Below are positions 17,340 through 53,646 of a stretch of 64,000 bases of DNA, piece after piece. Below the pieces are notes generated by a model. It had not been told where the DNA came from and ran no database searches. It was given only the letters and a program-made list of their open reading frames with translations. The stretch is from Botryllus schlosseri (Eukaryota), in NCBI GenBank assembly GCA_051294905.1, contig CM119371.1, positions 20,214,001 through 20,278,000 on the forward strand, read 5' to 3'. Position 1 is the first letter of the stretch. Each line of letters opens with the position of its first letter. A program made the position numbers and the translations under genes.

Positions 17340-17500
17340 GTGTTAAAAACGCGAGACGTTCTGAAACTGCACAAATGACGACTCAAAGCATAGCCTACGG
17401 GACCTATCATCTGGAATGCATTACAACCACATATACGTGAATTGCCTACAGTACAGCTAAGAAACGGATAAAAGAATATTGATATCGAGCTGCAATGTAG
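17340..17500 (+). mobile_element. Decayed 3' fragment of a CR1/L2-type LINE ORF2
   Basis: With frameshifts it reads SIAY.GPIIWNALQPHIRELPTVQL.KRIKEY, a typical C-terminal G..IWN.LP motif. Confidence 0.5.
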
Positions 17501-18620
17501 GGGGGGGGGGGGTACAGAGCAGGGATATGGAGTTGGAGTCGGCGTCGGAGTTTGGCTAATTTTCGCCTGATGGAGTCGGAGTCGTGAAAACTGTAGTGGC
17601 AGGAGTCGGAGTCGGAGTCGTGGAAAAAATACTGACTGGAGTCGGAGTTTGTGAAAGTGACCCTGATTTCGACTCCGACTCCGACCCCAACTTCTTTATC
17701 ATGAAAACAATTGCTTTCAAAAGTATCTTTGAATTACTATAGTAATAACAACTGTAATAGGATTTTTATGTACCATCAATCACTGTCCGTCTGCAATTCT
17801 TGGTTTCCAGATCAGTACTACGAACCATCTACTTCTTTCTTTTCCACTCTCACCTGAGGTCGACTTCAGAATTCCGATACCTAAATGTTGAAGGTTTACC
17901 TAGGCTCCTCATGGCCATCTCATCCGCGTAAGCGGTGTCTAACAAAAAGCCTAGAGGTGGGCTGTCCTATAAGTTGGCAGTTACGTAAAATAATGAACAA
18001 TATCGGCCTGGTGTAAATGACCATAGTAGTCGACAAACACCATGAATACCACATCCAAACAAACTGTGCCGGTGCCGACCATTTTAACAACCGGACGTAT
18101 AAGTATCCAAGGTTTTACCAACCGGTGACGGTCATTTTGGCTTCATGTCCGCACATCTTCCTGACTCCGCATTTTGCTCAGTAATGTGATGGCCTAATTT
18201 TCATGTTTTCATGTGTTCCGGTGTGGAAAGGGTTGGCCTCAAAATACCTCTGTCATACAGTCCCGTACCCGATTGTTTCACACCTCTACATTGAAGCCTC
18301 CAAGCGATATCCTACAGTGTTTTACAGACAAACCAATGTCTGACAAATCTTATCTTGAATTCGAGCCGATCTGTGTAATACAAATGTCGATAAATTTTCA
18401 TGATATAGCCATATTGTAGTAACAAGATTTTTGCGTGTCTCGCTTACTGGATATAGTACCCGACACAGCGAACTCGGACGCAGACAAATCAACCACAGGT
18501 AATCGCGCGAAGAATTTTTTTATTGCACTAAATCTATTTGCCATATACATATTAAAAGATTGATCTGGTGCCGCCGCCACACAAAATTATACCCTTCGCG
18601 ACCCATGTTTTGGTCGCAAC

Positions 18621-20197
18621 CAGAGTTGGATCAATTACAATATTTCAGTTCAATTACAATTACAATTACAATTACTTCCTTGCATGTTTCAATTACATTA
18701 CAATTACAATTACTCAATGCTAAAAATATCAAATTACAATTAAAGTTACAATAATTACTGTTAAACATGTAATTGACTCGGTGGAGAGGTGTTCTTTGAC
18801 AATCGCAGCCACGTAATTAGCAACAATCTGAATCTATTCATGTTTCATTCATGATACGTAGAATATCCTTCAATTAAAAAAAAATCTCGAACGTGTTCGA
18901 ACTATTCCTAATCATGAGTACTGAAAACTACAAACACAGAAAAATGCTTCAAGTGACTGCTAACAACCAGAAGTTTGAGCGACTAACAGCGAATAGTCTA
19001 CAGGACAGTTAATGAAATGCAATCAAACGATTAGGCTACACAGAGCTGAGTGAGGATAATGAAATGTAATTGGTAAGCGATAAGGATGATACCGATAAGG
19101 TATGTAAAATTAAAATAAATGCAGCAGGAAAGAACCTTCTGATAACTACGAATTGCAACATTTAGGTTCGCATTGACATTTTCACTTGCTCGGAAACTGT
19201 TAGATTGCATTTGATGAACTTTAGAGTGCGAAAAGTTTCTGGCCCCAGTAAATTTGGCCGAGATTGGAAGTAAAATTGGGATAACATCTCTACAAATGCG
19301 TGATCAAGTTTGATAAAACCTTGATTGGAAACTTGAATTTCTTTTTGCAATTGTTGCAGCAAGCCTCGGTACTGGTCATAGATTTAAAAGAAAAACTCTG
19401 ACCGTGGCGTAGGAAATGGTTCAGCACAGGTTTCAGAAGAGTTTATTTGCTGTTCATCCATTTTTGAAATATTAAGATTTAGTTTAGCCCACTAGTTCTT
19501 CAACTTTTTTAGACACTCCCCTCTTTATGACAGTGAAATATTTCGTGCCCCCCTTATCGTCACAGCACACAATGAAACCAGAATGTTAGCAATCCTTACA
19601 GATAGTTTGATGGTATGGAAGGTTATGTCTGTTGATGAGATAATTCTCCAATAGGAAATGTGGACTATACACAGAGCAATAACTATGAAATGGAGGTGAA
19701 CCGCGCCAAGCGCGGAAAAAATTTCAGTTTAACGGAGCTTCGCGCCCCCCTTCAGATGCTTTCACGTCGCCCAAGGGGGAACGTCCCCCAGTTTGAGAAC
19801 CACTGGGCTAGCCTATAATAGTAATTCTCAAAGTTTTCTGTTGCTGCTGAAGTATGGGAAACAGTTTATCATGGCTGAATTATCTAGTTATAACACGGCA
19901 CGCATAGAACACTGATGTAAATAGGCTAACTATTACAGGTGGCGACTGTGTACCAAGGCCTTAAGGCCTTGCGGGTTGCGGCCCATCGTCCTCATCCTGG
20001 TCCGTACCGGATTTTCACTGGTGTGACGAATAAATGATTGATTGATTATTATTTTATGTTGTGATTGTCAGGTTTCCATAACAGTGTAATTGAAATTGTA
20101 TTTGAGCAAAATTTTTATCAAATTACAATTACAATTACATGGAATTGTGTATTAATTACATTCAGGTCAAGTACAAATTAGAATTGTTCCAACTCTG
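18621..20197. mobile_element. hAT-type MITE with (CAATTA)n subterminal repeats
   Basis: TIR CAGAGTTGGA / TCCAACTCTG. TSD GTCGCAAC at 18613-18620 and 20198-20205. Mirror copy at 40282-41833. Confidence 0.9.
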
Positions 20198-20303
20198 GTC
20201 GCAACCCATACTTTAAGAACCCCTGGTGTACGACAAGCTGATTGATACGGTATGTAAAAATCCTCCTACGTGTATAGCATTTTAAAAACATGGCATTACT
20301 CCC

Positions 20304-21260
20304 TTGGAATACCTCACTGAGGAACTGTGTTCTGATCGCTATAGGCTTACGAAAGCCGGTGTTAGTGGATTTATGGAGGTCCTACAGTGTGACCTTACCA
20401 ACCCATCCAACAAAGGTCTGCCCCTGCCCCTGTTGTTAAAGTTCCTTGTTGTTTTGCGCTCTTACGCCGCAGGAGAGAGAGATATGATTTTTTTTTCGCC
20501 TGTACCATCGAGATGCTTTGACGACGGAGTTGCGATACGGCCCTGAGGTCATCTAGTCTGCGTCCCCGTTTTTTTTTCCTCCTCCATGATATCCGTCATT
20601 GCTGAGCGCCTAGCAGGATAGCTGCGGATACCAATTTTCGAGTCTTTGGTGTGACCCGGCCGGGGATAGAACCCACGACCTACCTATCGAGAAGCCGGAC
20701 GCATAACCATTACAGTATCTCGCAGGAATCTTTCAAGTTGTTGCTAGGGAACTGGTACATGAACCTGGGCAGTATTGCCATAGCTCATAAAAGCTCAAAA
20801 TACATCAAATTCCCACAAGGTGAAGTCGCAGCCAATGGGGCCACACGATTTTACGACTAATAGCTGCTGAACGTCGATATAACAAGGTTCAAATATCCTC
20901 CAGAATACCTATAGAACGGGCTTTTTGGAGTGTGGAAGAGCGTGTTTCCCTGCTTATCAAGGGATCGTCTACGGATAAGTGTCGACACAGCAATGGCTGT
21001 GATTGTTGCAACAGCAGTGTTATACAACTATGCCAGAAAACACAGGTAATATATTTCTTGATTTTTTTTAATATCAAGCGCTTAACTCCCTTCAAATTTA
21101 GGTGGATTATCAACAATGAAACTGATGTCCCTGTCATCCCGCAAGAAGTTGTAGAGGCATCAAGAGATGTACGAGGATCCCTGAGAGGCCTACCTAGCTC
21201 GGAGACGCCGGATCGTAGAAACCCACTTTACGAATGCAATATAATTTGTTATCATAAATA
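20304..21260 (+). pseudogene. PIF/Harbinger (HARBI1-like) transposase pseudogene, left-arm copy
   Basis: Reads DRYRLTKAGV…LTNPSNKGLPLP…VVLRSYAAG|[SINE]|IFQ, then KYIKFP…FYD, YNKVQISSRIPIERAF and MAVIVATAVLYNYARKH. The DDE core is missing and the 5' part is deleted relative to the right-arm copy. Confidence 0.8.
20475..20720 (-). mobile_element. tRNA-derived SINE
   Basis: Minus strand has an A-box-like TGTAATGG and a B-box-like GGGTTCTATCCC, plus a (CT)n tail. TSD CGCAGGA at 20468-20474 and 20721-20727. Confidence 0.82.
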
Positions 21261-21508
21261 AAATAACTGCGGTGTAACTTGTATGGAAGAGCACAGAAAG
21301 AAATGAAGTGGAACAGTACCTATCAATAATGCACAGTTACATAGACATAGCGAAAAAAAACATTAATATCGCGGTGCGGTGTTGCAAGTCAAGGCTTATG
21401 CAGTTAAATGGGCACAGCAAAAGAAACGTATTTAGGTCTTGGTGCTGCAATTAGAGGCATAGTAACTATCAATAATGGGAATAGCACAAAAGAATATTTG
21501 CATCTCGG

Positions 21509-22355
21509 CAGTGTTGGGAGCAAGTCACTACTTTCGAGTCACGAGTCATTTCGAGTCATTGCACATTTTGACTCGAGTCAAGTCAAGTCCCTCGATTTTC
21601 GAAAGTGAATCGCGTCAAGTCAAGTCACTCGTTTTTTGGAGGTGACTCGAGTCAAGTCACAATTCAAGTCAGATTGAATTTTCGAAGCATGAGTGATGAT
21701 TCAAAGTCATTACAGGTTGCTAGATGGGTGAAAAACAGATGTATTGGTCATATATCTTGAATCAAATAACGAGTATAAAGTCAAATATACATGCAAAAAG
21801 GCGCTGTATCGCTCACGCAGACGCAGAGCATCTAATAAAATACGTGAGCCAAAATGGAGGATAGAATACGAAGCGTCGATAAGTTTAAACAAATTGATAT
21901 GGTACAATACACTACCCATCTACTCATCCGTGAGAATATAAACGCATAAACTATATTCGTTCGATTCAAATCATACAAGAGGTTTGGTTGTAAGCGCTGA
22001 GCCGTCTAAGAAACAGAGATCCGTTGCTGTTGGATCATTCTACTGCTAGACATAAACAGTAAGCTGTCATCATTTCGTTTTCGGTGAGTTTATTTGTGAT
22101 GTAACAAGGAGGGATCAGTGAAAGGTACAATCAGTAAATGACTGGTTGCTGACACAAGTGACACCGGTGTATCGTGAATATTCCGAACATGAACAAGATA
22201 CACCGTTTACTTGATGACTTGAAATTAACTTGTAAATTTTGCTCCCAGTCACGAGTCAATCCACATTTTTGAAGCGCCGAGTCAAGTCGAGTCAAGTCAT
22301 TTTTGCAAAGTGATTCGAGTCAAGTCAAGTTATACAAAAAAGTTGACTCGAGTCA
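21509..22355. mobile_element. hAT-type MITE with (AGTCA/GAGTC)n arrays, right end truncated
   Basis: Starts CAGTGTTGGGAGCAAGTCAC. Arrays at 21535-21670 and 22245-22355. Homologous to 1821-2395. Confidence 0.75.
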
Positions 22356-22736
22356 TTTCAAAGCCATTTCTCGCCGATAATGATGGAGACAATGTGAATT
22401 TAAGATTTATTTAAGATTTCAAGGCGTTCAATAAGCCCGGTATCCCAAATTTACGAAGATATCAATTCATTAGCGTTGAGTACATCGTAAATGCCGATAA
22501 TGCAAGTCTTCTCACTTCTACGAACTTACGCGTGAGCTCCACTCTCGCACGCATTCTCGGTAATGGTATAGATAGAACCCCCGCGGCCCTAGTCTGCCGA
22601 GATTCCCCACTACTTGCTTACTACGTCAAATTTTAGCGGCTGTATTTGCGTGTGTGCACAGCGTGCGTGAGAGGCGCTTACGCGTAAGTAAGTAGAAGCG
22701 AGAAGACTTGCATTGTCGGAATTTATGGTTCTATAC

Positions 22737-24198
22737 CAGTGGTCGGGAACCTATGGCTCGCGAGCCATATATGGCTCTTTTGGGCATAAAGTATGGCTCT
22801 TTGCGAAAATTCTAATTTTGTGCATAATTTATCAATATTGCAGCAACTTGTTAATAAATCTTCAGCACAACAAGCATAATTATTCTTGTGGCAGTATAAA
22901 CATGTCTTTGAGAGGTGTGGCGTATTCAGGGTTAGGGGCTCGGAACCGTTTCAAAATCCTCAAATCTAAGTTGCTGTCTCGCCTGCGCCACGAAATCTCG
23001 GATTGCACGATGCGGTAATTGCTCAATGAGAATAGCAGACAAGGCGACGCCTGTATGACAATGCAGTTTTCAAATACTCATTGTCTTCCTGATCTACGGC
23101 GAGAAATGAACTCCGTGGAAGTGACATTCACAATTACGAATTCAAATTACAAACAACGCCATAGTGATCCACGTTCTTGATTGACAACGTAGCTTTGTAG
23201 TTGCTGTTCCAATGTAGGCGTGTGGCACAACGTTGTGTTACCGCCGAATACTTTGAGAATTGAGAAATCGAATCGGAATCGGTGCAGCAATTACATTCAA
23301 TTATTACACAGGTCAACAGAACGAAAAAATAGGCAGAACATCTAAGAGCCGTTTCTGGGGTTTTCGAGGTTGCTGATTACGAATATCACATTAGTGATTA
23401 GAGATAGGCTCTTGTACCCCTAAAAAAGTCCAAAATTACTATATTTACCATTGAATATTTTATTTGGCAAGTATTTACCATCGAATATTTTACTTGGCAA
23501 GAAGAAAATCGTAGTTTTTTTTATAGGTTTATTTATACTGCCCTTCAATAGATAATAATCGACTATGAAGAACCCTCATGTCGTCCCCATCGGTTATCTC
23601 CAAAAAAAGAGCCGATTTGAAAAAACTAAGGTCATTTTCGGAATCAGCGCCCTTCAGAACCACCAAACCCACTCTTACTTTGTATGCCCAAAAATATGTG
23701 TTTACCAGTGTTATCAGTTATTATAAATTTTATGATGTTTACGATGAACTGCGCTATGCTAATCCCGGCCGTGCCTCACCTATGCCTTACCTCCCCTTTC
23801 ACGCTATATTTTCGAACAATAAATAGGCAAGTTGCGTGATTCTCGTAGTAAAAATGTTCAAAATCTAGTAGACAGGTAAGGCACTGCCTCACGTGCTTCC
23901 CCTGAAACCACGTCACTGACGAATCGCACATTACGGTGGGTATGCATGCTGCTGTGTAGTGACCATCATGTTTGGCTCCGCCTACTTATGCCCCCATGGG
24001 TCCTCGCATTTATGAATATCGTCAAGACGAACCTACGATCTCGTATAACTGACGAAAGTCGACGAATTTTCGCTACCATGACGTCACTATTTTTCAATTG
24101 TGACGTATTAGTTGATTAAAATGTATGGCTCTTTGGAAGTTAAGATGGAAACTAGGGGACAATATGGCTCTTCGGACAAGAAAGGTTCCCGACCACTG
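22737..24198. mobile_element. hAT-type MITE present only in the left arm
   Basis: TIR CAGTGGTCGGGAACC / GGTTCCCGACCACTG. TSD TTCTATAC at 22729-22736 and 24199-24206. Single-copy empty site at 37354-37361. Confidence 0.93.
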
Positions 24199-26065
24199 TT
24201 CTATACCAATACCGAGAAAACTATTACCGGGAATTGACATTACCGAGAACAACCAATGCCAAGAATCTAACTTACTGAGAAGGCGTTGTCGAGACATTTA
24301 TATCTGAGATAAGACACCGAATGTGACAAAGCCGTCATGCATATGCACACGGCCTGTAAATATGCATAACTTGCCTGCATTGCATACATTGCATACATTG
24401 CATTCTCGGTAATGTCCATTCTCGATAATGGTTTTCTCGGTATTGACTGAACACCGGCCGGCGGGCCCCATTATAAACCAAGACGGGAACTGTCAGCGGG
24501 CCGGATCCGGCCCGCGGGCTGTATGTTGCCCGCCCCTGATGTATCGTAACATTTCTGACAGTGATGTAGCCATTGAAAGGCGTGGTGACAACGATGCCCT
24601 ACTCAAGTGAAAGTCCTTATAGTTAGGGTTTATATCAGTGGTTCCCAACCTTTTTGACGTCGGGGCTGCATTTCAATCCACAGAGTACGATGGAGCCAAA
24701 GGGGACAAAATTATTTATACAACGCAGCTTACAGTTAAGTTTGCCGCATTCGTGACCACGTCACCTTTTCAGCGCAGAGCTCCTCGAAACATTTTTTTAT
24801 ATATAATGTACACTGTACAGTGATACAGGTATTGACGTTGCCCTCAAAAACAGACAATTTATATACAATTTTTAACGTAATTCTGTCCTTTGTTGCTCCA
24901 CCTACCGTTAAACAAAACTTTGGTAGTTTGGTCAAATATTTCAGGATCGGATCTGATAAATACTATCACTGCCTTTTATAGAACCTGATTAACATCAAAC
25001 GGCATGGAAGCATCTCTATGACCCCAAGACTTTTTTAAATTACAGTGCTAGCCTGGAGTGCAATTAATATCCCATCTCTTCTGCGATATGATTTATTTGA
25101 AATATTGAACGCTAGAAATCGATCGCAATTCCAAATACTTTATCGCTCCTTCCTGCTTCATATCTTCTTTCTACCGGCTTTAAAGAGAAAAATAGCCATG
25201 AAAGGCGTGGTGACAACAGTCCCCCACTCAAGCGAAAGTCATTATAGTTAGAGTTTATATCAGTGGTCCCCAACCTTTTTACCGTCGGGGCTGCATTTCA
25301 ATCCACAGAGTACGATGGAGCCACATCAAAATACTCAAGTACTTAAAATGATGCAATTTAAAGCATAGGCAATGCACATTGCGCATAGACTGCTTTGGAT
25401 ACCATATCGATTGGTTGAGCATTGAAATATACGCAGATTAGCGATTGCTATTCAACGACACAAGGAATGCATATCATTTCTACAACGGAATATATATGTC
25501 GTTATGTGATAGAGCTCGTTCCTTCATCAATATTATAACGCAGAGCTAATGTTTATGTGATGTTATTGATGTGTAATCTGACTCCAGAAGGTTGCGTTGC
25601 GTATCCGTTGCGTGTATCTGTTTCTGACGTACCTCACTATGACGTAACACGCGACATGGAACCAGCCCGATCGAAACGGCACCCTCATTAATGATTACTG
25701 AGCGTATTTTCACGAACACGCTTCACTTAATCCAAAATTTCCTGGGTTGTTCTGGTCGTAGACAATTACAACTATTACAGATGGATAGCCATTATCAATA
25801 CGCATACGTCGAGCCATAAATAACATCTTATACTATCGAATAGCCTGTTCAAAATGCAGATTGAATACATAAAAACGTTTTGCGCAAAATACAATTCGCC
25901 ACGACGTTCGCGTGAATGTGCGCGCCTGAGATAAACCAGCGCCCGTGACCTAAATCAGCGCATCTGCGAGACATCAAATTCATTTGCAGATCTTTTCTCC
26001 TAACATGTGTTGGTTATGCCCATTGTCCATCTATTGGAATACTTATAATCAAAAATTAGTCGCAC

Positions 26066-26140
26066 AGAGAGTAGCTCAGTTGGTTAGGCGGCTGTTTCAC
26101 GATTACAGCGATATATTGGGTGTCGGTTCAAGTCTCGTGG
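26066..26140 (+). other. tRNA-like / SINE-head sequence (probably a pseudogene)
   Basis: GTAGCTCAGTTGGTTAG (A box) … GGTTCAAGTC (B box). No convincing acceptor stem. Confidence 0.5.
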
Positions 26141-26780
26141 TTCGGATTTTATGAACATTTTTCTAAATGCATTGAAATTTGGACTCGAGGCCGGCCGTTC
26201 TGATAGAAAACGAATTTCTTAACACTCGCATATACACTCAATGCAATACGTGGCTATAACGGCGTGGCAGTTCTTATCAATATTTCTCGTGAGGCCGGAA
26301 GTCTTATCGGATGTTTCTTGGGAATTTGGTAATATCTTTAGCTAATGCGTTTACAATCCTTTCACTGGATTGTAATGAATATCTAACGTTATACTTATGA
26401 AAAAACTTATTATACGCGGAGTGAAATTGAACTCATTCTGAATCTGGCTTGGCTACAAGGCATCATATTGGTATTAGTAAAATCGTATGGGCTGGGCATG
26501 GGCAATTGGGCATGTTTTCGATCACCAGCAGAAAGCAAGACAGATTCCGGCCACCACGTCCATGCTTTTGACGCTGGTCTGCGTGAAGTCTTTCCCTGAT
26601 ATTCAGAAGTCACCTTAAACGGCTTAGAGTCGCCTGAAATGGATTTACGCTTCTCTTTATTGTGATTGATAAGACATCTGCCGTAGTCAATCACCAATCA
26701 CAAAACGAACGGTGCAATTTTGATTGACAAAGCTTAGCTAGATCCACCAACATGTTCACGTGTCTCATGTTGACATATCT

Positions 26781-27090
26781 TAGGCTTACCATATTTCGGA
26801 AATGAAAAAAGAGGACACTTTTTCAGAAATATCAGACAAGCAAAACTGGAGAAGAATTCTCAAAAACATGTAAATTTCACCCGCTTCATGATCGGTTGAC
26901 TAAAAAAAAAAAAAAAAAAAAAAGGTCATCACTTCCGCTCAGAGCTCAAAAACACGTTTTTCACTCCACATTGCTAGGTGGATGACTAAAAAAATAAATA
27001 AATATAAAAATAAAAAGGTCTTTTTTTCGCTCAGAGCTGAAATCACCACTTTTCCCAAATCCTCGTAAAAGAGGACGTATGGTAAGCCTA
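26781..27090. mobile_element. hAT-type MITE present only in the left arm
   Basis: TIR TAGGCTTACCATA / TATGGTAAGCCTA. TSD ACATATCT at 26773-26780 and 27091-27098. Empty site near 35124-35131. Confidence 0.92.
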
Positions 27091-28039
27091 ACATATCTCA
27101 ATCAACAAATTCAGGAATGTGGAATAAACATATACGCTTATACTCACTAAATGATGTAATAAACGCACTCTCCCCCTTTGCAAGAAGCCCAATTTCCGAT
27201 ACCGCCGCAATCAGCGGCAGTGGTGCATGGAGCTAAAATCAGCAATATATTTGGTTATCTGTAGCAATGTAGCATGATTTAAAAAAGATTTATGACTCAC
27301 TTGCACCTGTACCATCCACGAAAAATAGCAGCCCAGTGATTGTAGTTGCGAATGCGAGAAGTAGATTCACCATGTTTGTGCTCTTGAGTTCGAATGCAAC
27401 TAGATTGAAAAAGCGTCGCGTTTTATGCTGTCTCTGAAATTTCTGATGTCATTTATCAATTGTAAGAACGGTGATGAAATCGGATGTCGTGCCATCAGAT
27501 CTCTTCAACGACACCGGTGCGTATTTTATTTCGTCTTGCCTGTGCCTACTATCTTGTCTGTTACACGAAAGATCCGCGCATTTATGTGGTCTCACGTTTC
27601 AAGTTTTGACAGATGCCACGTACAATATCGTCGATTGTTATCATATTTTGGGTTTAATTTGAGCACGATGTTGTATTCAAATGAGTAACGTCAGCTAAAA
27701 TTGAGTCACCGAGCCTTCTAGCTGCGCTACTGAACAAATGCAGGTCACAAATATCGCAATGGAACAATCAAGTGCTAGGCGTGATTACGACCGATCTCGA
27801 TGCGTTAACACCACTCAATAACATATTTTATAGCTGCAGTTCCCATATGTCGATATCTGAGAAAAATCGCAGCCGCCATAAATGTTTTCACACCTTCACC
27901 TTTAATTTAATGTAAGGCTGCCAAATGTCAGGATTTTCCCGGGCATAATCTATTTCAAACTATCGTCAATACAACAAATACCAAATTGTCAGGTGTGTTT
28001 GTCAGATTTCAAAATGAAAATGGTTTTGTTACTCTAGGA

Positions 28040-28810
28040 CAGGGGTGGGCAATTATTTTCCTCCACGGGCCAAATGAGAAAAATAAATACGTTGGCGGGC
28101 CGGGTGAAAACATTTAGCTATATTCTCCAGCGTATTGTAATTTTGTTTCTAAATTACATTGTTAATAAAGGCTGCTCAGTGAATGAGTTGATATTAGGTT
28201 ATGAGAAAGTGACGGCTAATTAAAAATATCTATTTGCTGTCATGATTCGAAACAATGTTAAACATGATACATTTTAGCTCTCTTTAAACCCACGTTCTTC
28301 TATTAAGATTCTAAAACAGTGGTTCTCAAACTTTTTTAGGCACGCCTCTCTTTATGATAGCGAATAATTTCGCCCCCTCTTTCATGATATCACAAAATAA
28401 TAAAAAGTGCAACCTGAATGCTAGCAATCCCAACGGATAGTTTGATGGCATGGAAGATTATGGCTGTTGATCAGAGACAGCCAATGTGATAATGTCAACA
28501 AGGAAGGTTTGAACTAAACTATATGGAAAGAGTGATTTCTTGAGACTTCAATTGCTACACATACTTTGCCACATTGCCTTTATGTTGAATCTGGATTACG
28601 CAAGCCAGGTACGTAGGCAGCGTAATCGTGGCATAATAAAGTATACAGGCTTCGAGGTAAGCCAATTTCATGTTCATTTGATACAGCCTATGGTTTTAGT
28701 CATTCAAAAGGCAAGTTTTATAGTTTGAATTTCAGGAAACCTTTCGCGGGCCACACAGAATAGCTTTGCGGGCCGCATTTGGCCCGCGGGCCGCACTTTG
28801 CCCAGGTCTG
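28040..28810. mobile_element. hAT-type MITE
   Basis: Ends CAGGGGTGGGCAA / TTGCCCAGGTCTG. TSD CTCTAGGA at 28032-28039 and 28811-28818. Confidence 0.88.
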
Positions 28811-28824
28811 CTCTAGGAAAAGCT

Positions 28825-29195
28825 AGATGACCAAGAGAAAATGTATTGTTACACTGGGTAAACGTCAGATCTCCAAAGGAAAATGATATTTTTACTCAGG
28901 TAAACGACGGACCACCAAGTGAAAAAAGGTTTGTAACCCAGGAAAAATATATTTCCAAGCGAAAAAGGTTTGTTACCCGGGAAAAAATATATTTCCAAGT
29001 GAAAATTGTTTGTTGCTCAGGGAAAAAATATATTTCCAAGTGAAAAAGGTTTGTTACCCGGGGAAAAAATACATTTACAAGTGAAAATGGTTTCTTACTC
29101 TGGGTAAACGTCAGATCTCCAAAGGAAAATGATATGTTTAGTCAGGTAAACGATGGACTGCCAAGTGAAAGTGGTAATTTTACATACGTAAACGT
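28825..29195. repeat. ~40-bp tandem minisatellite (about 9 degenerate units)
   Basis: Recurring CCAAGTGAAAAAGGTTTGTTACCC(A/G)GGAAAAATATATTT and the variant …TTACTCTGGGTAAACGTCAGATCT. Confidence 0.85.
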
Positions 29196-29199
29196 CGTG

Positions 29200-30950: not shown

Positions 30951-32949
30951 TGATTTACATTTAGAAAAGCGATATAGACCGATTAAGCGACGCTGTTTCA
31001 TATCCGTCGAGTGAGTAAAGTTTCTTTGGAGTTCGGTTTAGTGAGTTAATTGCTAGGGGCTCAATCACATACAAGTAACGTCTTTTAGTGACAGAGTATT
31101 GTGATGACATTTACTTTAGCGAATGACAACGGAAAAAAATTCGATTGCATTGTCGGTGTATGTGTTACACAAATAATTCTAGTACACCTAACTATAGGGC
31201 ACATTCGCCAAACATCGTACAAATTGTTTGTTTGTTATGGTAACGACTTTCAGCGGCTTGGTTTCATGTCGGGAATTATTATTTGAGTGTTCAAAAACAA
31301 TTTCAATCAATACTACAAATGAACAACGATACAAAACACGTTTAGTGATAGCAAGTACTTCCTTGATATTACGATTGTTGTGCACTAGCCATTTCTAGCT
31401 GAATTGAATGCATCTAGCAAACATATTCCAATTTACTTTTGTAATGATCAAAGTCTTGCAACCTCGTGATATTTTTCATTTAGCACGTTCTATAGAAAGT
31501 GTGAACGGAGTTGACTATCAATCGTGTACTTGGGATAATGCTTTGATATCAAAGATATATTTTCACACTGTGTAATGTTTCGATTCTCTGTTGTGAATTC
31601 TGACAGTAACGACGTTGATGTTAAATCCTCACTCTTGGTCATTGTAAGCGAATCCTAAACATCGCAACAGTCGGTCTGGAAATCGAACGCATGCATACTT
31701 TTAGATAGGCGACACTAACAAGTTTATTACATCCGTGAAATACTCTGAAACGTCGATTCGTGATTGTGTTAGCTATATTCATCTTCCATATCTGTGCCGG
31801 ACGTAAAGATTTCTTAACTTTGGTTACAGCTCATTCGTAACTAATTGTTGCGTGCAATCTAATAAAGCGCAAGTCGAAGACGAATGATTTGATTTCAATG
31901 AACTTAAAAGTCCTTTTTTGGTGTTGGGTTTAATACAATTTGTATGACTATAACGATTTCGATTCCAAAAGTGTTATGTTACATTTAACAAAAAGTTTGA
32001 TGACTTGTATTCTGATATTGATAGATGTGAAAAGTAATATGACTAGTTTATAAAATCCCGATAATGTTCTTTGTCATGTCTGTGTTCAACAAATATGCAA
32101 TCAAGTCTTACCATTCGATATTAACGTTCACAGTCGGCGTAAGCGATAATTTGTTGAAGTAACAATATGGACGAGTTCAATAATATTCTCCATCGATGTA
32201 TTCGAATAATCTGTCAGCTACAAGTGGATTAAAAACTTGATGCCGTTTTGTGGTTAACTCAAGTCAGTGGCCGTGTTTGTGTAGATTTCAGGGATGATCA
32301 TGACATGTTGGCAGGGTAAATTAGTTTATGTGGTTGTAACTATGATCGTAAAGAGTTGCTGACATTCCAATATCTTTTACGCTGTAATATACGGATTCAG
32401 TTGTGATAAATTATTTATCAGTTATTGTTCAGACATTCAAATCTCATATACTCAAAATGTAATATGTTTATGTCAAGTCGTATATGTACCGATTAGTAAA
32501 TACTTTGTCTTACAGTGTAGTAACAGCCTTTACAGTTGAATAAAAATTATCGGTCATATGAATACAACCAGGATGAATTAATTCAAATTTGCGAGTTGTA
32601 GTGATATAATCAAGTAAGTCAAAACTATATTTTTAACACCGGTTAATGTTATGAATAATTCTTCTGAGTATGGTAAGATGTTAAAATGTATCTTTGACAA
32701 ACGGGAAGCTGGATCGTGAATAGAGTGGTAATGTTTCATTACTTGTTTCAAATCAATGTGCGTATAATATCGAAATGGTACTTGGAAAGATGGTAGTCAT
32801 GTTTGTCAATCCTATTTCAATTCACACTACGCCGGAGTCAAAATATTTCGTTTCGGATTATCTCAATTTACCTATAGAACATCTCGCGAATGGATTCCGA
32901 CGCTGTACTATAACTAGATCGCTATGTCTGATGCATTATCGTGTCAGCG

Positions 32950-33680
32950 ACGTAGGATTTTTACAATTATTTCACACCTTTTTTGAATAAGCGTCAACTT
33001 CACAGAGGATTAGGGTTGGATCAGAAATAAGTGAGAATTTGTCGGTATTCGAATCACCGTCTGCGACGGTTCTGTTATTCGTTACATATTTAATCTTACC
33101 AGAGAAATCCAGTTCTGCGACAAACCAATTACCAAAATAATACCTCGTGAGTGATCGGCATGCCTGTAACACCAAGTCGCGAGCGATGGTTATGTCTGCA
33201 GCGTTATCCTGTGAGCGTTCGTAGGATTTTCAAATTATTTCACACCTTTTTGAATAAGTGTCAACTTCGCGAAGGATTACGGTTAGAGTAGAAATAAGTG
33301 ACAATTTGTTGGTATTCTAGTCCCGCCGGTGGCGGTTCTGTTATTCGCCCCTTATTGTGCTTATCATGCAATTAGACTTAGAAAATAAAGCATCAAGTTG
33401 TTGTTTTCGAATCTTGATGTCGAGGTTATAAATTTACGCATCCAATTACAATTCAACTTCGATTATGTATTGAGCGATAGATCGATATGCCTGAAGCGGT
33501 ATCTTGTGAGTGATCGTAGGATTTGTAATCTATTTCACACCTATTTGAAGTGATAGTTTGCGAACGCGGTTATTGTTGGTATTGGAATCGCCGTCTACGT
33601 CGGCTCTCTGGTAAACTAATTAGCGAATATTACCTTGCTAGTGATTCCTAGATCCACCAAATTATTTCACACCTTTTGGC
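32950..33680. repeat. Degenerate tandem repeat of ~270-295-bp units
   Basis: GTAGGATTTT..AATTATTTCACACCTTTTTGAA recurs near 32952, 33221, 33517 and (partially) 33660. Confidence 0.75.
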
Positions 33681-33699
33681 TGAAAGTACGACATACCAA

Positions 33700-34200
33700 C
33701 AACGAAGCCGCGTGCGACCGATCCCTATGCTGAAAAGGGTTACCGTGCGACCACAAGCCACAATAGCCGCTTGTCACCCCCGCCATAAGACATAAGAGCC
33801 GCTTGCGACCCCCGCCATAAGAATAACGATATATCATCGTCGCACTCACCGTAAACGTTGGGATTACTTCAAATTGGTCATATATAATAATTTGTGATAC
33901 ACACAACAACTAAGAACCAATCACGTGACTATTTACTTGATACATATTCATCACCGTGCCGCCGCGCCTATACCAACAACGTTAGTCAAATAATGAACAG
34001 TCTATACCCGAAGGGTCACCGTGCCGCCGCAGCCTATACCCGAAAAGGTAACCATGCCACCCCCGCCGTAAGACACAATGGCACCGTGCCACCGCACCCA
34101 TAAGAGATAAGGGTCACCGTGCCACCACGAGTTTCTCGGCACCGTGCCGCCGCACCCATAAGAACCCCATAGCCGCGTGCGCCCGATCTATACTACTACT
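33700..34200. repeat. GC-rich subterminal repeats and AGT-repeat terminus (putative Polinton TIR)
   Basis: Repeated (A/G)CCGTGCC(G/A)CCGCACCCATAAGA / CCCCGCCATAAGA motifs ending in CTATACTACTACT. Confidence 0.7.
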
Positions 34201-37200
34201 TACATCAATCCTTCATAATTCCTGACATTTGGGCACATTTTAGAATTTCCTCACGGACGCATTTGAACGGGGAAATTCCGGACTTGCCCGGGAAAATCCT
34301 TACATTTGGCAGCCTTACATTAAATTAAAGGTGAAGGTGTGAAAACATTTATGGCGGCTGCGATTTTTCTCAGATATCGACATGTGGGAACTGCAGCTAT
34401 AAAATATGTTATTGAGTGGTGTTAACGCATCGAGATCGGTCGTAATCACGCCTAGCACCTGATTGTTCCATTGCGATATTTGTGACCTGCATTTGTTCAG
34501 TAGCGCAGCTAGAAGGTTCGGTGACTCAATTTTAGCTGACGTTACTCATCTGAATACGACATGGTGCTCAAATTAAACCCAAAATATGATAACAATCGAC
34601 GATACTGTACGTGGCATCTGTCAAAACTTGAAACGTGAGATCACATAAATGCGCGGATGTTTTGTGTAACAGACAAGATAGTAGGCACAGGCAAGACGAT
34701 ATAAAATACGCACCGGTGTCGTTGAAGAGATCTGATGGCACGACAACCGATTTCATCACCGTTCATACAATTGACAAATGACATCAGAAATTTCAGAGAC
34801 AGCATAAAACGCGACGCTTTTTTAATCTAGTTGCATTCGAACTCAAGAGCACAGACATGGTGAATCTACTTCTCGCATTCGCAACTACAATCACTGGGCT
34901 GCTATTTTTCGTGGATGGTACAGGTGCAAGTGAGTCATAAATCTTTTTTAAATCATGCTACAGATAACGAAATATATTGCTGATTATAGCTCCATGCACC
35001 ACTGCCGCTGATTGCGGCGGTATCGGAAATTGGGTTTCTTGCAAAGGGGGAGAGTGCGTTTATTACATCATTTAGTGAGTATAAGCGTATATGTTTATTC
35101 CACATTCCTGAATTTGTTGATTGAGATATGTTAACATGAGACACGTGAACATGTTGGTGGATCTAGCTAAGCTTTGTCAATCAAAAATGCACCGTTCGTT
35201 TTGTGATTGGTGATTGACTACGGCAGATGCTTTATCAACAAGACAACGCTGACATTTATGGGTAGTACACTTAACAAATACGATACGTCGTCATAATAAA
35301 GAGAAGCGTAAATCCATTCGAGGCGACTCTAAGCCGTTTAAGGTGACTTCTGAATATCAGGGAAAGACTTCACGCAGACTAGCGTCAAACGCATGGACGT
35401 AATGGCCGGAATCTGTCTTGCTTTCTGCTGGTGATCAAAAACATGCCCATGCCCAGCCCATACAATTTTACTAATACCAAAATAATGCCTTGTAGCCAAG
35501 CCAGATTCAGAATGAGTTCAATTTCACTCCGCGTATAATAAGTTTTTTCATAAGTATAACGTTAGATATTCATTACAATCCAGTGAAAGGATTGTAAATG
35601 CATTATCTAAAGATATTACCAAATTCCCAAGAAACATCCGATAAGACTTCCGGCCTCGCGAGAAATATTGATAAGAACTGCCACGCCGTCATAGTCACGT
35701 ATTGCATTGAGTGTATATGCGAGTGTTATGAAATTCGTTCATATAGGCTACAATTGAGGTACATTCAAAATTATATCTGGTTCCATGTCGCGTGTTACGT
35801 CATAGCCAGGTACGTCAGAAACAGATACACGCAACGGATACGCAACGCAACCTTCTGGAGTCAGATTACACATCAATAACATCACATAAACATTAGCTCT
35901 GCGTTATAATATTGATGAAGGAACGAGCTCTATCACATGACGACATATATCTTCCGTTGTAGAAATGATATGCATTCCTTGTGTCGTTGAATAGCAATCG
36001 CTAATCTGCGTATATATTAATGCTCAACCAATCGATATGGTATCCAAAGCAGTCTATGCGCAATGTGCATTGCCTATGCTTTAAAATGCATCATTTTAAG
36101 TACTTGAGTATTTTGATGTGGCTCCATCGTACTCTGTGGATTGAAATGCAGCCCCGACGTCAAGAAGGTTGGGGACCACTGATATAAACCCTAACTATAA
36201 GGACTTTCGCTTAAGTGGGGGACCGTTGTCACCACGCCTTTCAATGGCTACATCACTGTCAGAAATGTAACGTTACATGGACCTATGCCTTTGCCTTCAA
36301 TGGAATAAGTTAAGCCTACTATTCGATATCTGCATAAAGCAGGAAAGCTTTTATGTTGATATGTATTTTTCTCTTTAAAGCCGGTAGAAAGAAGATATGA
36401 AGCAGGAAGAAGCGATGAAGTATTTGGAATTACGATCGATTTCTAGCGTTCAATATTTCAAATAAATCATATCGCAGAAGAGATGGGATATTAATTGCAC
36501 TCCAGGCTAGCACTGTAATTTAAAAAAGTCTTGGGGTCATAGAGATGTTTCCATGCCGTTTGATGTTAATCAGGTTCTATAAAAGGCAGTGATGGTATTT
36601 ATCAGATCCGATCCTGAAATATTTGACCAAACTACCAAAGTTTTGTTTAACGGTAGGTGGAGCAACAAAGGACAGAATTACGTTAAAAATTGTATATAAA
36701 TTGTCTGTTTTTGAGGGCAACGTCAATACCAGTGTCACTGTACAGTGTACATTATATATAAAAAAAAATGTTCCGAGGAGCTCTGCGCTGAAAAGGTGAC
36801 GTGGTCACGAATGCGGCAAACTTAACTGTAAGCTGCGTTGTATAAATAATTTTGTACCCTTTGGCTCCAACGTACTCTGTGGATTGAAATGCAGCCCCGA
36901 CGTCAAAAAGGTTGGGGACCACTGATATAAACCCTAACTATAAGGAATTTCACTTGAGTGGGGCATCGTTGTCACCACGCCTTTCAATGGCTACATCACT
37001 GTCAGAAATGTTACGATACATCAGGGGCGGGCAACATACAGCCCACGGGCCGGATCCGGCCCGCTGACAGTTCCCGTCTTAGTTGATAATGGGGCCCGCC
37101 GGCCGGTGTTCAGTCAATACCGATAAAACCATTATCGAGAATGGACATTACCGAGAATGCAATGTATGCAATGTATTCAATGCAGGCAAGTTATGCATAT

Positions 37201-38859
37201 TTACAGGCCGTGTGCATATGCATGACGGCTTTGTCACATTCGGTGTCTTATCTCACATATAAATATCTCGACAACGCCTACTCAATAAGTTAGATTCTTG
37301 GTATTGGCTGTTCTCGGTAATGTCAATTCCCGGTAATAGTTTTCTCGGTATTGGTATAGAACCATAAATTCCGACAATGCAAGTCTTCTCGCTTCTACTT
37401 ACTTACGCGTAAGCTCCTCTCTCGCACGCTGTGCACACACGCAAATACAGCCGCTAAAATTTGACGTAGTAAGCAAGAAGTGGGGAATCTCGGCAGACTA
37501 GGGCCGCGGGGGTTCTATCTATACCATTACCGAGAATGTGTGCGGGAGTGGAGCTCACGCGTAAGTTCGTAGAAGTGAGAAGACTTGCATTATCGGCATT
37601 TACGATGTACTCAACCCTAATGAATTGATATCTTCGTAAATTTGGGATACCGGGCTTATTGAACGCCTTGAAATCTTAATTATATCTTAAATTCACATTG
37701 TCTCCATCATTATCGGCGAGAAATGGCTTTGAAATGACTCGAGTCAACTTTTTCGTATGACTTGACTTGACTCGAGTCACTTTGCAAAAATGATTTGACT
37801 TGACTTGACTCGGCGCTTCAAAAATGTGTATTGACTCGTGACTGCGAGCAAAATTTACGAGTCAATTTCAAGTCATCAAGTAAACGGTGTATCTTGTTCA
37901 TGTTCGGATTATTCACGATACACCGGTGTCACTTGTGTCAGCAACCAGTCATTCACTGATTGTACCTTTCACTGATCCCTCCTTGTTACATCACAAATAA
38001 ACTCACCGAAAACGAAATGATGACAGCTTACTGTTTATGTCTAGCAGTAGAATAATCTAACAGCAACGGATCTCTGTTTCTTAGACGGCTCAGCGCTTAC
38101 AACCAAACCTCTTGTATGATTTGAATCGAACGAATATAGTTTATGCGTTTATATTCTCACGGATGAGTAGATGGGTAGTGTATTGTACCATATCAATTTG
38201 TTTAAACTTATCGACGCTTCGTATTCTATCCTCCATTTTGGCTCACGTATTTTATTAGCTGCTCTGCGTCTGCGTGAGCGATACAACGCCTTTTTGCGTG
38301 TATATTTGACTATATAATCGGTATTTGATTAAAGATACATGACCAATACATCTGTTTTTCACCCATCTAGCAACATGTAATGACTTTGAATCATCACTCA
38401 TGCTTCGAAAATTCAATCTGACTTGAATTGTGACTTGATTCGAGACTTGACTTGACTTGACTCGAGTCACCTCCAAAAAACGAGTGACTTGACTTGACTC
38501 GATTCCCCTTCGAAAATCGAGTGACTTGACTTGACTCGAGTCAAAGTGTGCAATGACTCGAAATGACTCGTGACTCGAAAGTAGTGACTTGATCCCAACA
38601 CTGCCGTGATGTAAATACTCTTTTGTGCTATTCCCATTATTGATAGTTACTATGCCTCTAATTGCAGCACCAAGACCTAAATACGCTTCTTTTGCTATGT
38701 CCATTTAACTGCATAAGCCTTGAATTGCAACACCACACCGCGATATTAATGTTTTTTTTCGCTATGTCTATGTAACTGTGCATTATTGATAGGTACTGTT
38801 CCACTTCATTTCTTTCTGTGCTCTTCCATACAAGTTACACCGCAGTTACTTTATTCATG

Positions 38860-39977
38860 ATAACAAATTATACTGCATTCGTAAAGTGGGTTTCTACGAT
38901 CCGGCGTCACCGAGCTAGGTAGGCCTCTCAGGGATCCTCGTACATCTCTTGATGCCTCTACAACTTCTTGCGGGATGACAGGGACATCAGTTTCATTGTT
39001 GATAATCCACCTAAATTTGAAGGGAGTTGAGCGCTTGATATTAAAAAAAAATCAAGAAATATATTACCTGTGTTTTCTGGCATAGTTGTATAACACTGCT
39101 GTTGCAACAATCACAGCCATTGCTGTGTTGACACTTATCCGTAGACGACCCCGTGATAAGCAGGGAAACACGCTCTTCCACACTCCTAAAAGTCCGTTCT
39201 ATAGTTATTCTGGAGGATATTTGAACCTTGTTATATCGACGTTCAGCAGCTATTTGTCGTAAAATCGTGGGGCCCCATTGGCTGCGACTTCACCTTGTGG
39301 GAATTTGATGTATTTTGAGCTTTTATGAGCTATGGCAATACTGTCCAGGTTCATGTACCAGTTCCCTAGCAACAACTTGAAAGCTTCCTGCGAGATAGTG
39401 TAATGGTTATGCGTCCGGCTTCTCGATCGGTAGGTCGCGGGTTCTATCCCCGGCCGGGTCACACCAAAGATTCGAAAATTGGTATCCGCAGCTATCCTGC
39501 TAGGCGCTCAGCAATCACGGATAGCATGGAGGAGAAAAAAAACGGGGACGCAGACGAGATGACCTCAGGGCCGTATCGCAACTCCGTCGTCAAAGCATCT
39601 CGATGGTACAGGCGAAAAAAAATCATATCTCTCTCTCCTGCGGCGTAAGAGCGCAAAACAACACGGAACTTTAACAACGGGGGCAGGGGCAGACCTTTGT
39701 TGGATGGGTTGGTAAGGCCACACTGTAGGACCTCCATAAATCCACTAACACCGGCTTTCGTAAGCCTATAGCGATCAGAACACAGTTCCTCAGTGAGGTA
39801 TTCCAAGGGATTATCAGAATCTGTAAGGTACTTCTGTACTTGCTGCAGCTTGTTTCCATCCACTTGCATGTAATATTCTAACATATCTATGTCAATATCC
39901 ATTTTATCTGAAAGGAATGAAACACGTACTGTATACCTATCTGCCGATATATGGAATCGGTGCCTCGTGCACACCAA
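38860..39977 (-). pseudogene. PIF/Harbinger (HARBI1-like) transposase pseudogene, right-arm copy (retains 5' end)
   Basis: ORF 39492-39977 reads …YLTDSDNPLEYLTEELCSDRYRLTKAGV…RSYAAG. Removing the SINE gives YAAGSFQ, matching the HARBI1 Y/FATGSFQ motif. Confidence 0.82.
39393..39635 (+). mobile_element. tRNA-derived SINE (mirror of 20475-20720)
   Basis: AGATAGTGTAATGGTT…GGGTTCTATCCCCGG. TSD TCCTGCG at 39386-39392 and 39636-39642. Confidence 0.82.
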
Positions 39978-40281
39978 AGATTCTACTAACTGTACAGGTA
40001 CACACGGATTTAACAGTCAATCTGACCGACAACCAACCGTTTTATGTTATGAAGCGACAACAAATCTGCCGACCATCGAACCTCTCGACCGTGAATCACG
40101 TGTTGCCCATCTATCCGTGGGTTAGTTATCTATAGTATGATAGCAAAGCAGTTTATCGACACTTAAACTTTATTCAAGAGGGTAATGCCATGTTTTTGAA
40201 ATGCTACACGTAGGAGGATTTTTACGTAACGTGTCAATCAGCTTGTCGTACATCAGGGGTTCTTAAAGTATGGGTTGCGAC

Positions 40282-41833
40282 CAGAGTTGGATCAATTGTA
40301 ATTTGTACTTGACCTGAATGTAATTAATACATTTTTCCATGTAATTGTAATTGTAATTTGATAAAAATTTTGCTCAATTACAATTTCAATTACATTGTTA
40401 TGGAAACCTGGCAATCACAACATAAAATAATAATCAATCAATCATTTATTCGTCACACCAGTGAAAATCCGGTACGGACCAGGATGACGACGATGGGCCG
40501 CAACCCGCAAGGCCTTAAGGCCTTGGTACACAGTCGCCACCTGTAATAGTTAGCCTATTTACATCAGTGTTCTATGCGTGCCGTGTTAAAACTAGATAAT
40601 TCAGCCATGCTAAACTGTTTCCCATACTTCAGCAGCAACAGAAAACTTTGTGAATTACTATTATAGGCTAACCCAGTGGTTCTCAAACTGGGGGACGTTC
40701 CCCCTTGGGCGACGTGAAAGCATCTGAAGGGGGGCGCGAAGCTCCGGTAAACTGAAATTTTTTCCGCGCTTGGCGCGGTTCACCTCCATTTCATAGTTAT
40801 TGCTCTGTGTATAGTCCATATTTTCTATTGGAGAATTATCTCATCAACAGTCATAACCTTCCATACCATCAAACTATCTGTAAGGATTGCTAACATTCTG
40901 GTTTCCTTGTGTGCCGTGACGATAAGGGGGGCACGAAATATTTCACTGTCATAAAGAGGGGAGTGTCTAAAAAAGTTGAAGAACTAGTGGGCTAAACTAA
41001 ATCTTAATATTTCAAAAATGGATGAACAGCAAATAAACTCTTCTGAAACCTGTGCTGAACCATTTCCTACGCCACGGTCAGAGTTTTTCTTTTAAATCTC
41101 TGACCAGTACCGAGGCTTGCTGCAACAATTGCAAAAAGAAATTCAAGTTTCCAACCAAGGTTTTATCAAACTTGATCACGCATTTGTAGAGATGTTATCC
41201 CAATTTTACTTCCAATCTCGGCCAAATTTACTGGGGCCAGAAACTTTTCGCACTCCAAAGTTCATCAAATGCAATCTAACAGTTTCGGAGGAAGTGAAAA
41301 TGTAAATGCGAACCTGAATGTTGCAATTCGTAGTTATCGGAAGGTTCTTTCCTGTTGCATTTATTTTAATTTTATATGCCTTATCGCTTACCAATTACAT
41401 TTCATTATCCTCACTCAGCTCTGAGTAGCCTAATCGTTTGATTGCATTTCATTACCTGTCCTGTAGCCTATTCGCTGTTAGTCGCTCAAACTTATGGTTG
41501 TTAGCAGTCACTTGAAGCATTTTTCTGTGTTTGTAGTTTTCAGTACTCATGATTAGGAATAGTTCGAATACGTTCGAGTTTTTTTTTAATTAAAGGATAT
41601 TCTACGTATCATGAATGAAACATGAATAGATTCAGATTGTCGCTAATTACGTCACTGCGGTTGTCAAAGAACACCTCTCTACCGAGTCAATCACATGTTT
41701 AACAGTAATTGTAATTGTAATTTGATATTTTTAGCATTGAGTAATTGTAATTGTAATGTAATTGAAACATGCAAGGAAGTAATTCTAATTGTAATTGTAA
41801 TTGTTCTGAAATATTGAAATTGATCCATCTCTG
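40282..41833. mobile_element. hAT-type (CAATTA)n MITE, mirror of 18621-20197
   Basis: TSD GTTGCGAC at 40274-40281 and 41834-41841. Confidence 0.9.
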
Positions 41834-42297
41834 GTTGCGACCAAAACATGGGTCGCGAAGGGTATAATTTTGTGTGGCGGCGGCACCAGATCAATCTTTT
41901 AATATATATATGGCAAATAGATTAAGTGCAATAAAAAAATTCTTCGCGCGATTACCTGTGGTTGATTTGTCTGCGTCCGAGTTCACTGTGTCGGGTACTA
42001 TATCCAGTGAGCGAGACACGCAAAAATGTTGTTACTACAATATGGCTATATCATGAAAATTTATCGACATTTGTATTACACAGATCGGCTCGAATTCATG
42101 ATAAGATTTGTCAGATATTGGTTTGTCTGTAAAACACTGTAGGATATCGCTTGGAGGCTTCAATGTAGAGGTGTGAAACAATCGGGTACGGGACTGTATG
42201 GCAGAGGTATTTTGAGGCAAACCCTTTCCGCACCGGAACACATGAAAACATGAAGATTAGGCCATCACATTACTGAGCAAAATGCGGTGTCAGGAAG

Positions 42298-42600
42298 GGT
42301 CCGTGGACATATGAGCATGCGACATTACAGCATGCGAGACTTCGGCATGCGACAATTTGGCATGCGACAAATGAGCATGTGGGTTAAATTACGGGTCAGG
42401 GGTATGTTAGGGTTGGATTTATGGTTGGGTTAGGGTTAGGCTTTAGGTTAGGTTAGGCTAGGTTAGGTTAGGTTAGGCTATGTTTCGGGTTAGGGTAAGT
42501 TTTTGGGTTATACAGTCACATGCTGAAGTGACGCATGCTGATGTGTTCCATGCTGAACTGTCGTTTTCCATTGTGTCGCATGCTCATATGTCGGGCAACC
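42298..42600. mobile_element. Mutator-like MITE with internal (TTAGG/TTAGGG)-like repeats, right arm only
   Basis: Imperfect TIRs GG…GACATATGAGCATGCGACA / TGTCGCATGCTCATATGTC…CC. 9-bp TSD GTCAGGAAG at 42289-42297 and 42601-42609. Empty site CTTCCTGAC at 18157-18165. Confidence 0.88.
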
Positions 42601-43454
42601 GTCAGGAAGATGTGCGGACATGAAGCCAAAATGACCGTCACCGGTTGGTGAAACCTTGGATGCTGATACGTCCGGTTGTTAAAATGGTCGGCACCGGCAC
42701 AGTTTGTTTGTATGTGGTATTCATGGTGTTTGTCGACTTCTATGGTCATTTACACCAGGCCGATATTGTTCATTATTTTCCGTAACTGCCGACTTATAGA
42801 ACAGCCCACCTCTAGGCTTTTTGTAAGACACCGCTTACGCGGATGAGGTGGCCAGGAGGAGCCTAGGTAAACCTACAACATTTAGGTATCGGAATTCTGA
42901 AGTCGACCTCAGGTGAGAGTTGAAAAGAGAGAAGTAGATGGTTCGTAGTACTGATCTGGAAACCAAAGATTGCAGACGGACAGTGATTGATGGTACATAA
43001 AAATCCTATTACAGTTGTTATTACTATAGTAATTCAAAGATACCTTTGAAAGCAATTGTTTTCATGATAAAGAAGTTGGGGTCGGAGTCGGATTCGAAAT
43101 CAGGGTCATTTTCACAAACTCCGACTCCACCGACTCCGACTCCACATCCCTGCTCTGTACCCCCCATTGCAGCTCGATATCAATATTCTATAATCCGTTT
43201 CTTAGCTGTACCGTACTAATTGGACACGACTTTCATTTCGCGATGATGATAATTCTTCCTATTACAGTGGCAGTATCGTTATCAGCAGGCTGCCGTTTTA
43301 TTCAACAAATTGACAATTGACAGCCAATAACGTGTTTTCACATTAAGATGCAACAGATAACGCTATCATCCATATACATGGCTACACGGAGCATTATCTG
43401 GAACAGCTATATACAGCAATACACTGCTATAGTCAGATTACTTACGGTCTACGA

Positions 43455-45945: not shown

Positions 45946-45946
45946 C

Positions 45947-53608: not shown

Positions 53609-53646
<38 letters not shown>

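Follow-up and report, generated by a model that had tools for sequence, protein, structure and literature searches.

Positions 17447 to 43215 of a 64,000-nucleotide stretch of the Botryllus schlosseri genome (NCBI GenBank assembly GCA_051294905.1, contig CM119371.1, positions 20,214,001 to 20,278,000 of the forward strand; hereafter the window) probably represent an old, real inverted duplication, which belongs to a known class of rearrangement and likely had a trigger of a new kind. Two arms enclose a spacer of 6,339 bp (27946-34284) that carries the broken stump of a repeat which occurs at very high copy number and has a Maverick-type end. The arms are reverse complements of each other from 17447/43215 to 27945/34285, in exact agreement with the coordinates that an initial annotation had proposed from the letters of the window. 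Self-BLAST returned matches with bit scores of up to 4,019 (E = 0), and in the global alignment of the arms the homology stops abruptly at both its inner and its outer ends. The 64-kb window contains 0 N.

17447..27945, plus strand: left arm, 10,499 bp, a mosaic of decayed transposons, delimited by self-BLAST and alignment
34285..43215, minus strand: right arm, 8,931 bp, repeating the left arm in reverse complement, 3.0% diverged
27945..27946, no strand: inner new junction, blunt, without microhomology, 84 bp outside the position of the Maverick-type end

The arms differ in length because of blocks present in one arm only (94, 1,470, about 506 and 318 bp in the left arm; 312, 371, 116 and 52 bp in the right). 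In the global alignment they differ at 255 of 8,055 aligned columns and, once columns within 6 of a large indel and a misaligned block at 25660-26215 are left out, at 234 of 7,849 columns (2.98%, Kimura two-parameter distance 0.030). These differences are Poisson-flat, with variance-to-mean ratios of 0.91, 0.99 and 0.85 at 100, 250 and 500 columns. The longest identical run is 200 columns, the expected value being 198, and the distribution of differences along the arms gives no sign of patchy gene conversion between them. When a single divergence time was simulated, 187 of 1,000 runs were as flat on all three scales. Two alleles were simulated under the sequentially Markov coalescent (SMC') at constant population size, and runs were kept at 2.5-3.5% divergence. 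At a theta of 0.03, rho/theta values of 0.1, 1 and 10 each gave 0 of 200 such runs with this degree of flatness on the three scales; at a theta of 0.09 and rho/theta of 1, 16 of 11,771 draws fell within the divergence filter. From the flat divergence and these simulations, the arms look like paralogs that were copied once, unless local recombination is very low.

The initial annotation had allowed for two divergent haplotypes joined head to head by the assembler, an artefact that we now consider very improbable, and the duplication is supported as real. We aligned contigs of four public runs (X1, X3, X20 and X21), representing three samples, to positions 27800-45300. X1 and X3 may be the assembled sample, and the individual pieces, joints and loose ends considered are the 32 of 270,155, 15 of 1,704 and 24 of 12,856 that were listed. 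Fifteen further runs from other organisms or metagenomes (X5-X19), with small shares of the sampled words, form no part of the evidence. Among 18 contigs compared with both arms, 3, all of sample S1, show 0 differences from the right arm across 2, 4 and 5 sites that distinguish left from right, so right-arm-specific sequence is present in the reads. The right outer edge is spanned by one contig from sample S18, which covers 60 + 101 letters around 43215/43216 with 15 differences in 161 (9.3%). A mis-join would be in keeping with the best run holding 0.57 of the sampled words, with right-arm-specific contigs at about the depth of other single contigs (a unit depth that could be haploid or diploid), and with an inner junction left unbridged among the pieces listed. 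It is hard to reconcile with the flat arm divergence, with a window of 0 N in which the blunt inner join offers an assembler no overlap, and with flanks past the outer edges that share 13 scattered repeat matches and lack collinear homology. The right outer join is, moreover, found in another sample, and third versions of the sequence are present within sample S1 (3 contigs).

Contigs of the spacer repeat family define the inner junction. Loose ends at 27946 occur in three of the four runs, where 33, 8 and 5 contigs continue with other letters, and these letters correspond neither to the left arm nor to the reverse of the right flank at 43216. Because family contigs continue past 27946, the junction is new, lies inside the repeat and has no microhomology, provided that the local copy resembled the family at 27946, and the rest of the repeat has been lost. 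The exact stop of the family contigs at 27946 thus upholds the claim of the initial annotation that 27945/27946 is a novel junction. Its picture of arm and spacer re-laid in reverse is not supported in a loss-free form, since the family continues past 27946 and the second end of the repeat is absent from the window (the end pattern gave 1 exact match among 5 hits), so that sequence was lost.

27946..34200, minus strand: stump of a very high-copy repeat, with an (AGT)n Maverick-type end at 34200 and broken at 27946
34201..34317, minus strand: end of a hAT-like element, 117 bp, host of the insertion of the Maverick-ended repeat
28040..28810, no strand: hAT-like miniature inverted-repeat transposable element (MITE) in the stump, with an 8-bp target duplication

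The stump measures about 5.5 kb after subtraction of 779 bp of later MITE, whose empty-site joints (28031 to 28811) are found in three of the four runs. Its terminus at 34200 reads ACTACTACT, with the motif at 34192-34200; this motif supports the Maverick-type end that had been placed there from the letters, the published end motif being 5'-(AGT)2//(ACT)2-3' (PMC8097293; papers cited by PMC number are used here in excerpt). Summed contig depth over the spacer in X1 is 6.8e4-3.0e5, compared with about 8-11 for single contigs, and it exceeds single contigs by thousands-fold in each of the 11 bins of the spacer for X1, X3 and X20, a summed depth that does not equal copy number. A six-frame Pfam scan of the stump, with stops read as X, returned 0 families across 6 of 6 frames and none of the Maverick core genes (pPolB, integrase, ATPase, protease, capsids). 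The stump is Maverick-ended and is not classed as an autonomous Maverick; it probably represents the greater part of a single arm of a palindromic Maverick satellite.

The insertion site of this repeat can be read directly. The element at 34201..34317, which we take to be hAT-like, has kept 33 bp of its end in the left arm (27913-27945), and the right arm runs 84 bases further in the same transposon-like end, up to the terminus at 34200. Two S1 contigs align from exactly 34201 and carry other sequence beyond, which is the empty site, and they show that the repeat inserted 117 bp inside the hAT-like end. One break lies 84 bp from the element end, or 0.9% of the arm length (a post hoc figure), and the other 5.5 kb in.

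43215..43216, no strand: right outer edge, bridged by the S18 contig and so possibly older than the duplication
17330..17496 (start approximate), plus strand: decayed 3' coding end resembling a long interspersed nuclear element (LINE), spanning the left outer edge

At the left outer edge, translations show a LINE-like C-terminal peptide that crosses 17446/17447 in two frames. The last 50 bp or so of this piece are the first 50 bp of both arms, and two apparent frameshifts within them are common to both. Its LINE-like identity is our assumption from a sequence motif; Pfam detected no LINE domain at the left edge in any of 3 frames, and tblastx found no second LINE-like copy in the window outside the right arm. 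At the right outer edge, the S18 contig is 9.3% diverged, three times the divergence of the arms. Its 15 differences in 161 letters would have a P of about 1e-4 if the join were only as old as the arms (3.0%), and CpG decay cannot account for them (8 CpG in 161 bases, about the arm average). Low-copy parts of the arms also exist in versions 6.7-9.0% from the right arm in all three samples, according to 7 chosen contigs that may be paralogs or deep alleles and were drawn from a listing that favours long, divergent ones. An old right join would make the right arm the native one at either end and the left arm the later copy. We lean slightly towards this reading, which runs against the polarity first proposed; a single contig underlies the old right join, and its divergence could have been inflated by recombination close to the junction. 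Of the two junctions initially regarded as new, 27945/27946 is accordingly retained and 43215/43216 is uncertain, the S18 contig suggesting an older join. Old staggered-break inversions are known to leave short inverted duplications of 46 bp to about 1.9 kb (PMC1885836).

We propose, with about even confidence, that a U-turn or fold-back at a palindromic Maverick-ended repeat copied the flank, that a second switch followed, and that an asymmetric deletion left the present spacer. Template switching, one of the mechanism classes offered by the initial annotation, is supported. In the proposed sequence of events, a hAT-like element already resided in this transposon-rich DNA when the Maverick-ended repeat inserted 117 bp inside it, a step visible at one end. 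If that repeat was palindromic, its arms could form a fork-stalling hairpin and would supply perfect inverted homology for a U-turn; restarted forks make such a turn at an inverted repeat (PMC4351560). After the U-turn, synthesis would have recopied the hAT end and then 8-9 kb of flanking DNA in the opposite direction, for which the simplest intermediate would be flank-arm-hAT end-palindromic satellite-hAT end'-arm'-flank. A second switch at the outer edge, inside the LINE-like remnant, might then have restored the direction of synthesis, in line with the repeat-mediated second steps described after fold-back (PMC10622511). If the right join is old, the point of re-entry for the left arm could have been a short inverted copy of the LINE-like remnant that predated the event. 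The blunt junction would mark the loss of one arm of the satellite, together with its loop and 84 bp of the hAT end; the loss itself is observed there and may have happened in the same event or later, and palindromic junctions can lose one arm (PMC4689423). Alternatively, a single jump from near the centre of the satellite to the base of the hairpin could have yielded the same product. The remaining 6.3-kb spacer would stabilise the structure, after which the arms diverged independently, each gaining its own MITEs with no sign of conversion.

Several observations weigh against this account. The palindromic nature of the spacer copy is one that we infer: no long inverted repeat was found inside the spacer, from which the second palindrome arm is absent. 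The inner junction lacks the microhomology that 13 of 18 non-repeat human fold-back junctions have in the excerpt of PMC3907307, and 27945/27946 is spanned by no contig among the pieces listed. A break within a common repeat could also be due to chance in DNA as repeat-dense as this. The outer edges conflict, LINE-like continuity marking the left as native and one contig marking the right as old. Finally, two-allele runs at a theta of 0.03 reached the observed flatness in 33 of 200 cases at rho/theta 0.001 and in 15 of 200 at 0.01, as well as in 2 of 200 at the very high recombination of rho/theta 30.

An alternative that is unlikely, albeit credible, starts from the order left flank-arm-hAT-Maverick end and has two switches or staggered breaks re-lay arm and spacer in reverse, making both junctions new and the palindrome irrelevant. 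The right arm is native at its inner edge, and the LINE-like peptide reads across the left outer edge with its two frameshifts in both arms, as such a history would have it. An extra deletion would be needed, however, since the repeat family does not run into the flank at 43216. The S18 contig over 43215/43216 (15 of 161, P about 1e-4 at 3.0%) is a further difficulty, though recombination with an older allele could inflate its divergence, and the Drosophila staggered-break duplications in the excerpt of PMC1885836 do not exceed about 1.9 kb. A staggered-break inversion, named in the initial annotation, is not supported in a form without loss: the family letters before 27946 are not the reverse complement of the sequence from 43216 onwards. 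It is improbable, to our judgement, that the inverted pair is instead at least 9% old and that one long conversion or break-induced copy overwrote one arm. The versions of low-copy arm sequence at 6.7-9.0% in all 3 samples (7 chosen contigs) and the right outer join at 9.3% are what such an old pair might leave; yet neither end of the arms retains a patch of old divergence (differences at 5 of the 100 columns at the start and at 2 of the 100 at the end), and the contigs listed are biased towards divergent ones that may be paralogs elsewhere.

Still lower we rate a young template switch between homologs, which would have placed two alleles in cis, the 3% being the allelic difference at birth. 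Substitutions of about 3% together with transposon indels do resemble allelic differences in highly heterozygous marine invertebrates. Allelic divergence is nonetheless expected to be patchy at rho/theta 0.1-10, a range in which the simulations yielded 0 equally flat runs out of 200 per value. The initial annotation had also considered aberrant (alternative) transposition at a transposon end, for which the hAT or the Maverick end would be candidates. Transposon ends do lie near the inner junction, but neither junction coincides with a terminus: on the arm side the inner one falls 33 bp into the hAT-like end, still 84 bp outside the Maverick-type end, and on the spacer side, at 27946, it cuts the repeat internally, and the outer edges are without a visible terminus or target duplication. 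This leaves aberrant transposition barely plausible and in effect contradicted, except if 43216 or 17446 hides a terminus that went unrecognised.

Since the copying, each arm has acquired a set of insertions and deletions of its own.

22737..24198, no strand: hAT-like MITE, left arm only, with terminal inverted repeats and an 8-bp target duplication; related to 43455-44758
26771..27088, no strand: MITE, left arm only, with a target duplication
25666..26207, no strand: left-arm-only block, about 506 bp net, with a tRNA-like head of the type found in short interspersed nuclear elements, recognised by eye
42298..42609, no strand: MITE, right arm only, with a 9-bp target duplication
39811..40181, minus strand: right-arm-only 371 bp, its edge crossed by a Harbinger-like reading frame at 39492-40016

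Three of the one-arm blocks (2 left, 1 right) are insertions, because they have target duplications. Across 9 sites, 3 target duplications were found by script and 2 more are visible with corrected coordinates; the other 4 sites resemble deletions. The 371-bp block was likely deleted from the left arm, given that the Harbinger-like frame spans its edge. Pfam analysis of six short frames of the Harbinger-like part gave DDE_Tnp_4 at 39000-39300 with E = 0.012, below the curated cut-off, and ARAGORN found 0 tRNA genes despite the tRNA-like head at 25666-26207. Just outside the hAT-like end, positions 34318-34800 are repeated at low copy (4-11 contigs per listed site in X1 and X3), so an older element or a segmental duplicate may make up this inner portion of the arm. 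The longest open reading frame (ORF) in the arms is at most 174 aa; no gene is evidently affected by the duplication, which is apparently functionless, and we propose no function for it.

The stump itself shows further internal structure. Near its broken end, a 41-bp tandem array of about 8 copies occupies 28816-29138 and varies in copy number among family members, and sub-terminal direct repeats at 32917-33666 and 33751-34126 have units of about 165 bp and 32-33 bp. Compared with X1, X21 covers the body of the satellite at low depth, and certain short repeats and the end of the satellite at high depth, a profile that might resemble that of an RNA or open-chromatin library. X21 cover is also near zero at 35976-36559, an observation that we left unused as the depth profile is uneven. 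Searches for the Maverick-end pattern elsewhere gave 0 hits in viral contigs and 5 in metagenome contigs; none of the latter aligned to the window past the pattern, and we attribute them to chance.

Beyond the arms, an element with long inverted ends occupies 46674-51502 (46674-47237 versus 50202-51502, 83-94%). One of its ends is interrupted by an inverted-ended insertion at 50454-51195, and the ends flank two ORFs on the minus strand, one of 172 aa and one of 192 aa that has a C2H2 zinc finger (E = 7e-5); the element is probably the remnant of a DNA transposon. Kelch-repeat coding pieces lie on the plus strand at 4846-5265 and 7548-8174 (Kelch_1, E = 2e-6 and 2e-14), and tblastn found no further copies of them in the window. 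A minus-strand remnant of a non-LTR (long terminal repeat) retrotransposon at 3335-4573, with RNase H and zf-RVT, is split by a stop. Dispersed direct repeats pair 45946-46669 with 58051-58765 (78%) and 11578-11874 with 53439-53766 (95-98%), and self-BLAST detected a short self-inverted MITE-like piece at 63128-63285.

In yeast and in human cells, fold-back duplications are known to be driven by long palindromes; large palindromes that belong to a mobile family would spread triggers for such events across an animal genome. We therefore raise, as a speculative and rather doubtful generalisation, the idea that giant palindromic Maverick satellites act as built-in U-turn sites, at which neighbouring host DNA is duplicated in inverted order before the satellite is trimmed to a single arm. 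If this were true, the locus would record, as a fossil, a virus-derived and recurring origin of segmental duplications in the host, and the satellites themselves could arise by the same fold-back chemistry. A single locus carries little weight, and the importance of the idea would come from recurrence. A thin search by title and start of abstract, which is not proof of absence, retrieved no report of a palindromic Maverick seeding host duplications.

Among known systems, Maverick/Polinton elements (PMC8097293) share the (AGT)n end motif and high copy number with the stump, which differs in having one surviving end and no detectable core gene. Staggered-break inversions (PMC1885836, PMC7584159) likewise leave inverted copies on either side of a reversed segment, and an old event of this type could explain the short LINE-like piece at both outer edges. 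Their duplications range from 46 bp to about 1.9 kb in the excerpt of PMC1885836, whereas the Botryllus duplicate exceeds its spacer in length and the locus has lost sequence. Amplicons from origin-dependent inverted-repeat amplification (ODIRA; PMC4689423) also have a palindromic centre that loses one arm and leaves a long spacer; as excerpted, they are triplications with loss via short repeats, in contrast to the two copies and blunt join of the Botryllus locus.

Human fold-back inverted duplications (PMC3907307) similarly consist of two inverted copies around a single-copy spacer. Their spacers measure 766-70,466 bp (median 3,428), a range that includes the 6,339 bp found here. In the cases listed in that source, they lie beside terminal deletions or translocations and involve far larger segments, mostly with 2-8 bp of inverted microhomology or homology between repeats of about 300 bp. 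The Botryllus locus is interstitial, about 8 kb in size and old, and its inner junction is blunt. Neither inverted microhomology nor repeat homology was found at the spacer edge, where the family stops at 27946 and the arms at 27945/34285. The locus works like a fold-back or U-turn inverted duplication and, because it lacks the microhomology and is interstitial, it is not filed under the human terminal type. The fission yeast U-turn (PMC4351560) and the budding yeast fold-back (PMC10622511) likewise employ an inverted repeat as the turning point, and in both a second, often repeat-mediated, switch ends the duplication. These yeast events, as excerpted, are induced, use short repeats and give acentric or dicentric products, whereas in Botryllus a mobile palindrome was the likely trigger and what resulted is a stable duplication of small size.

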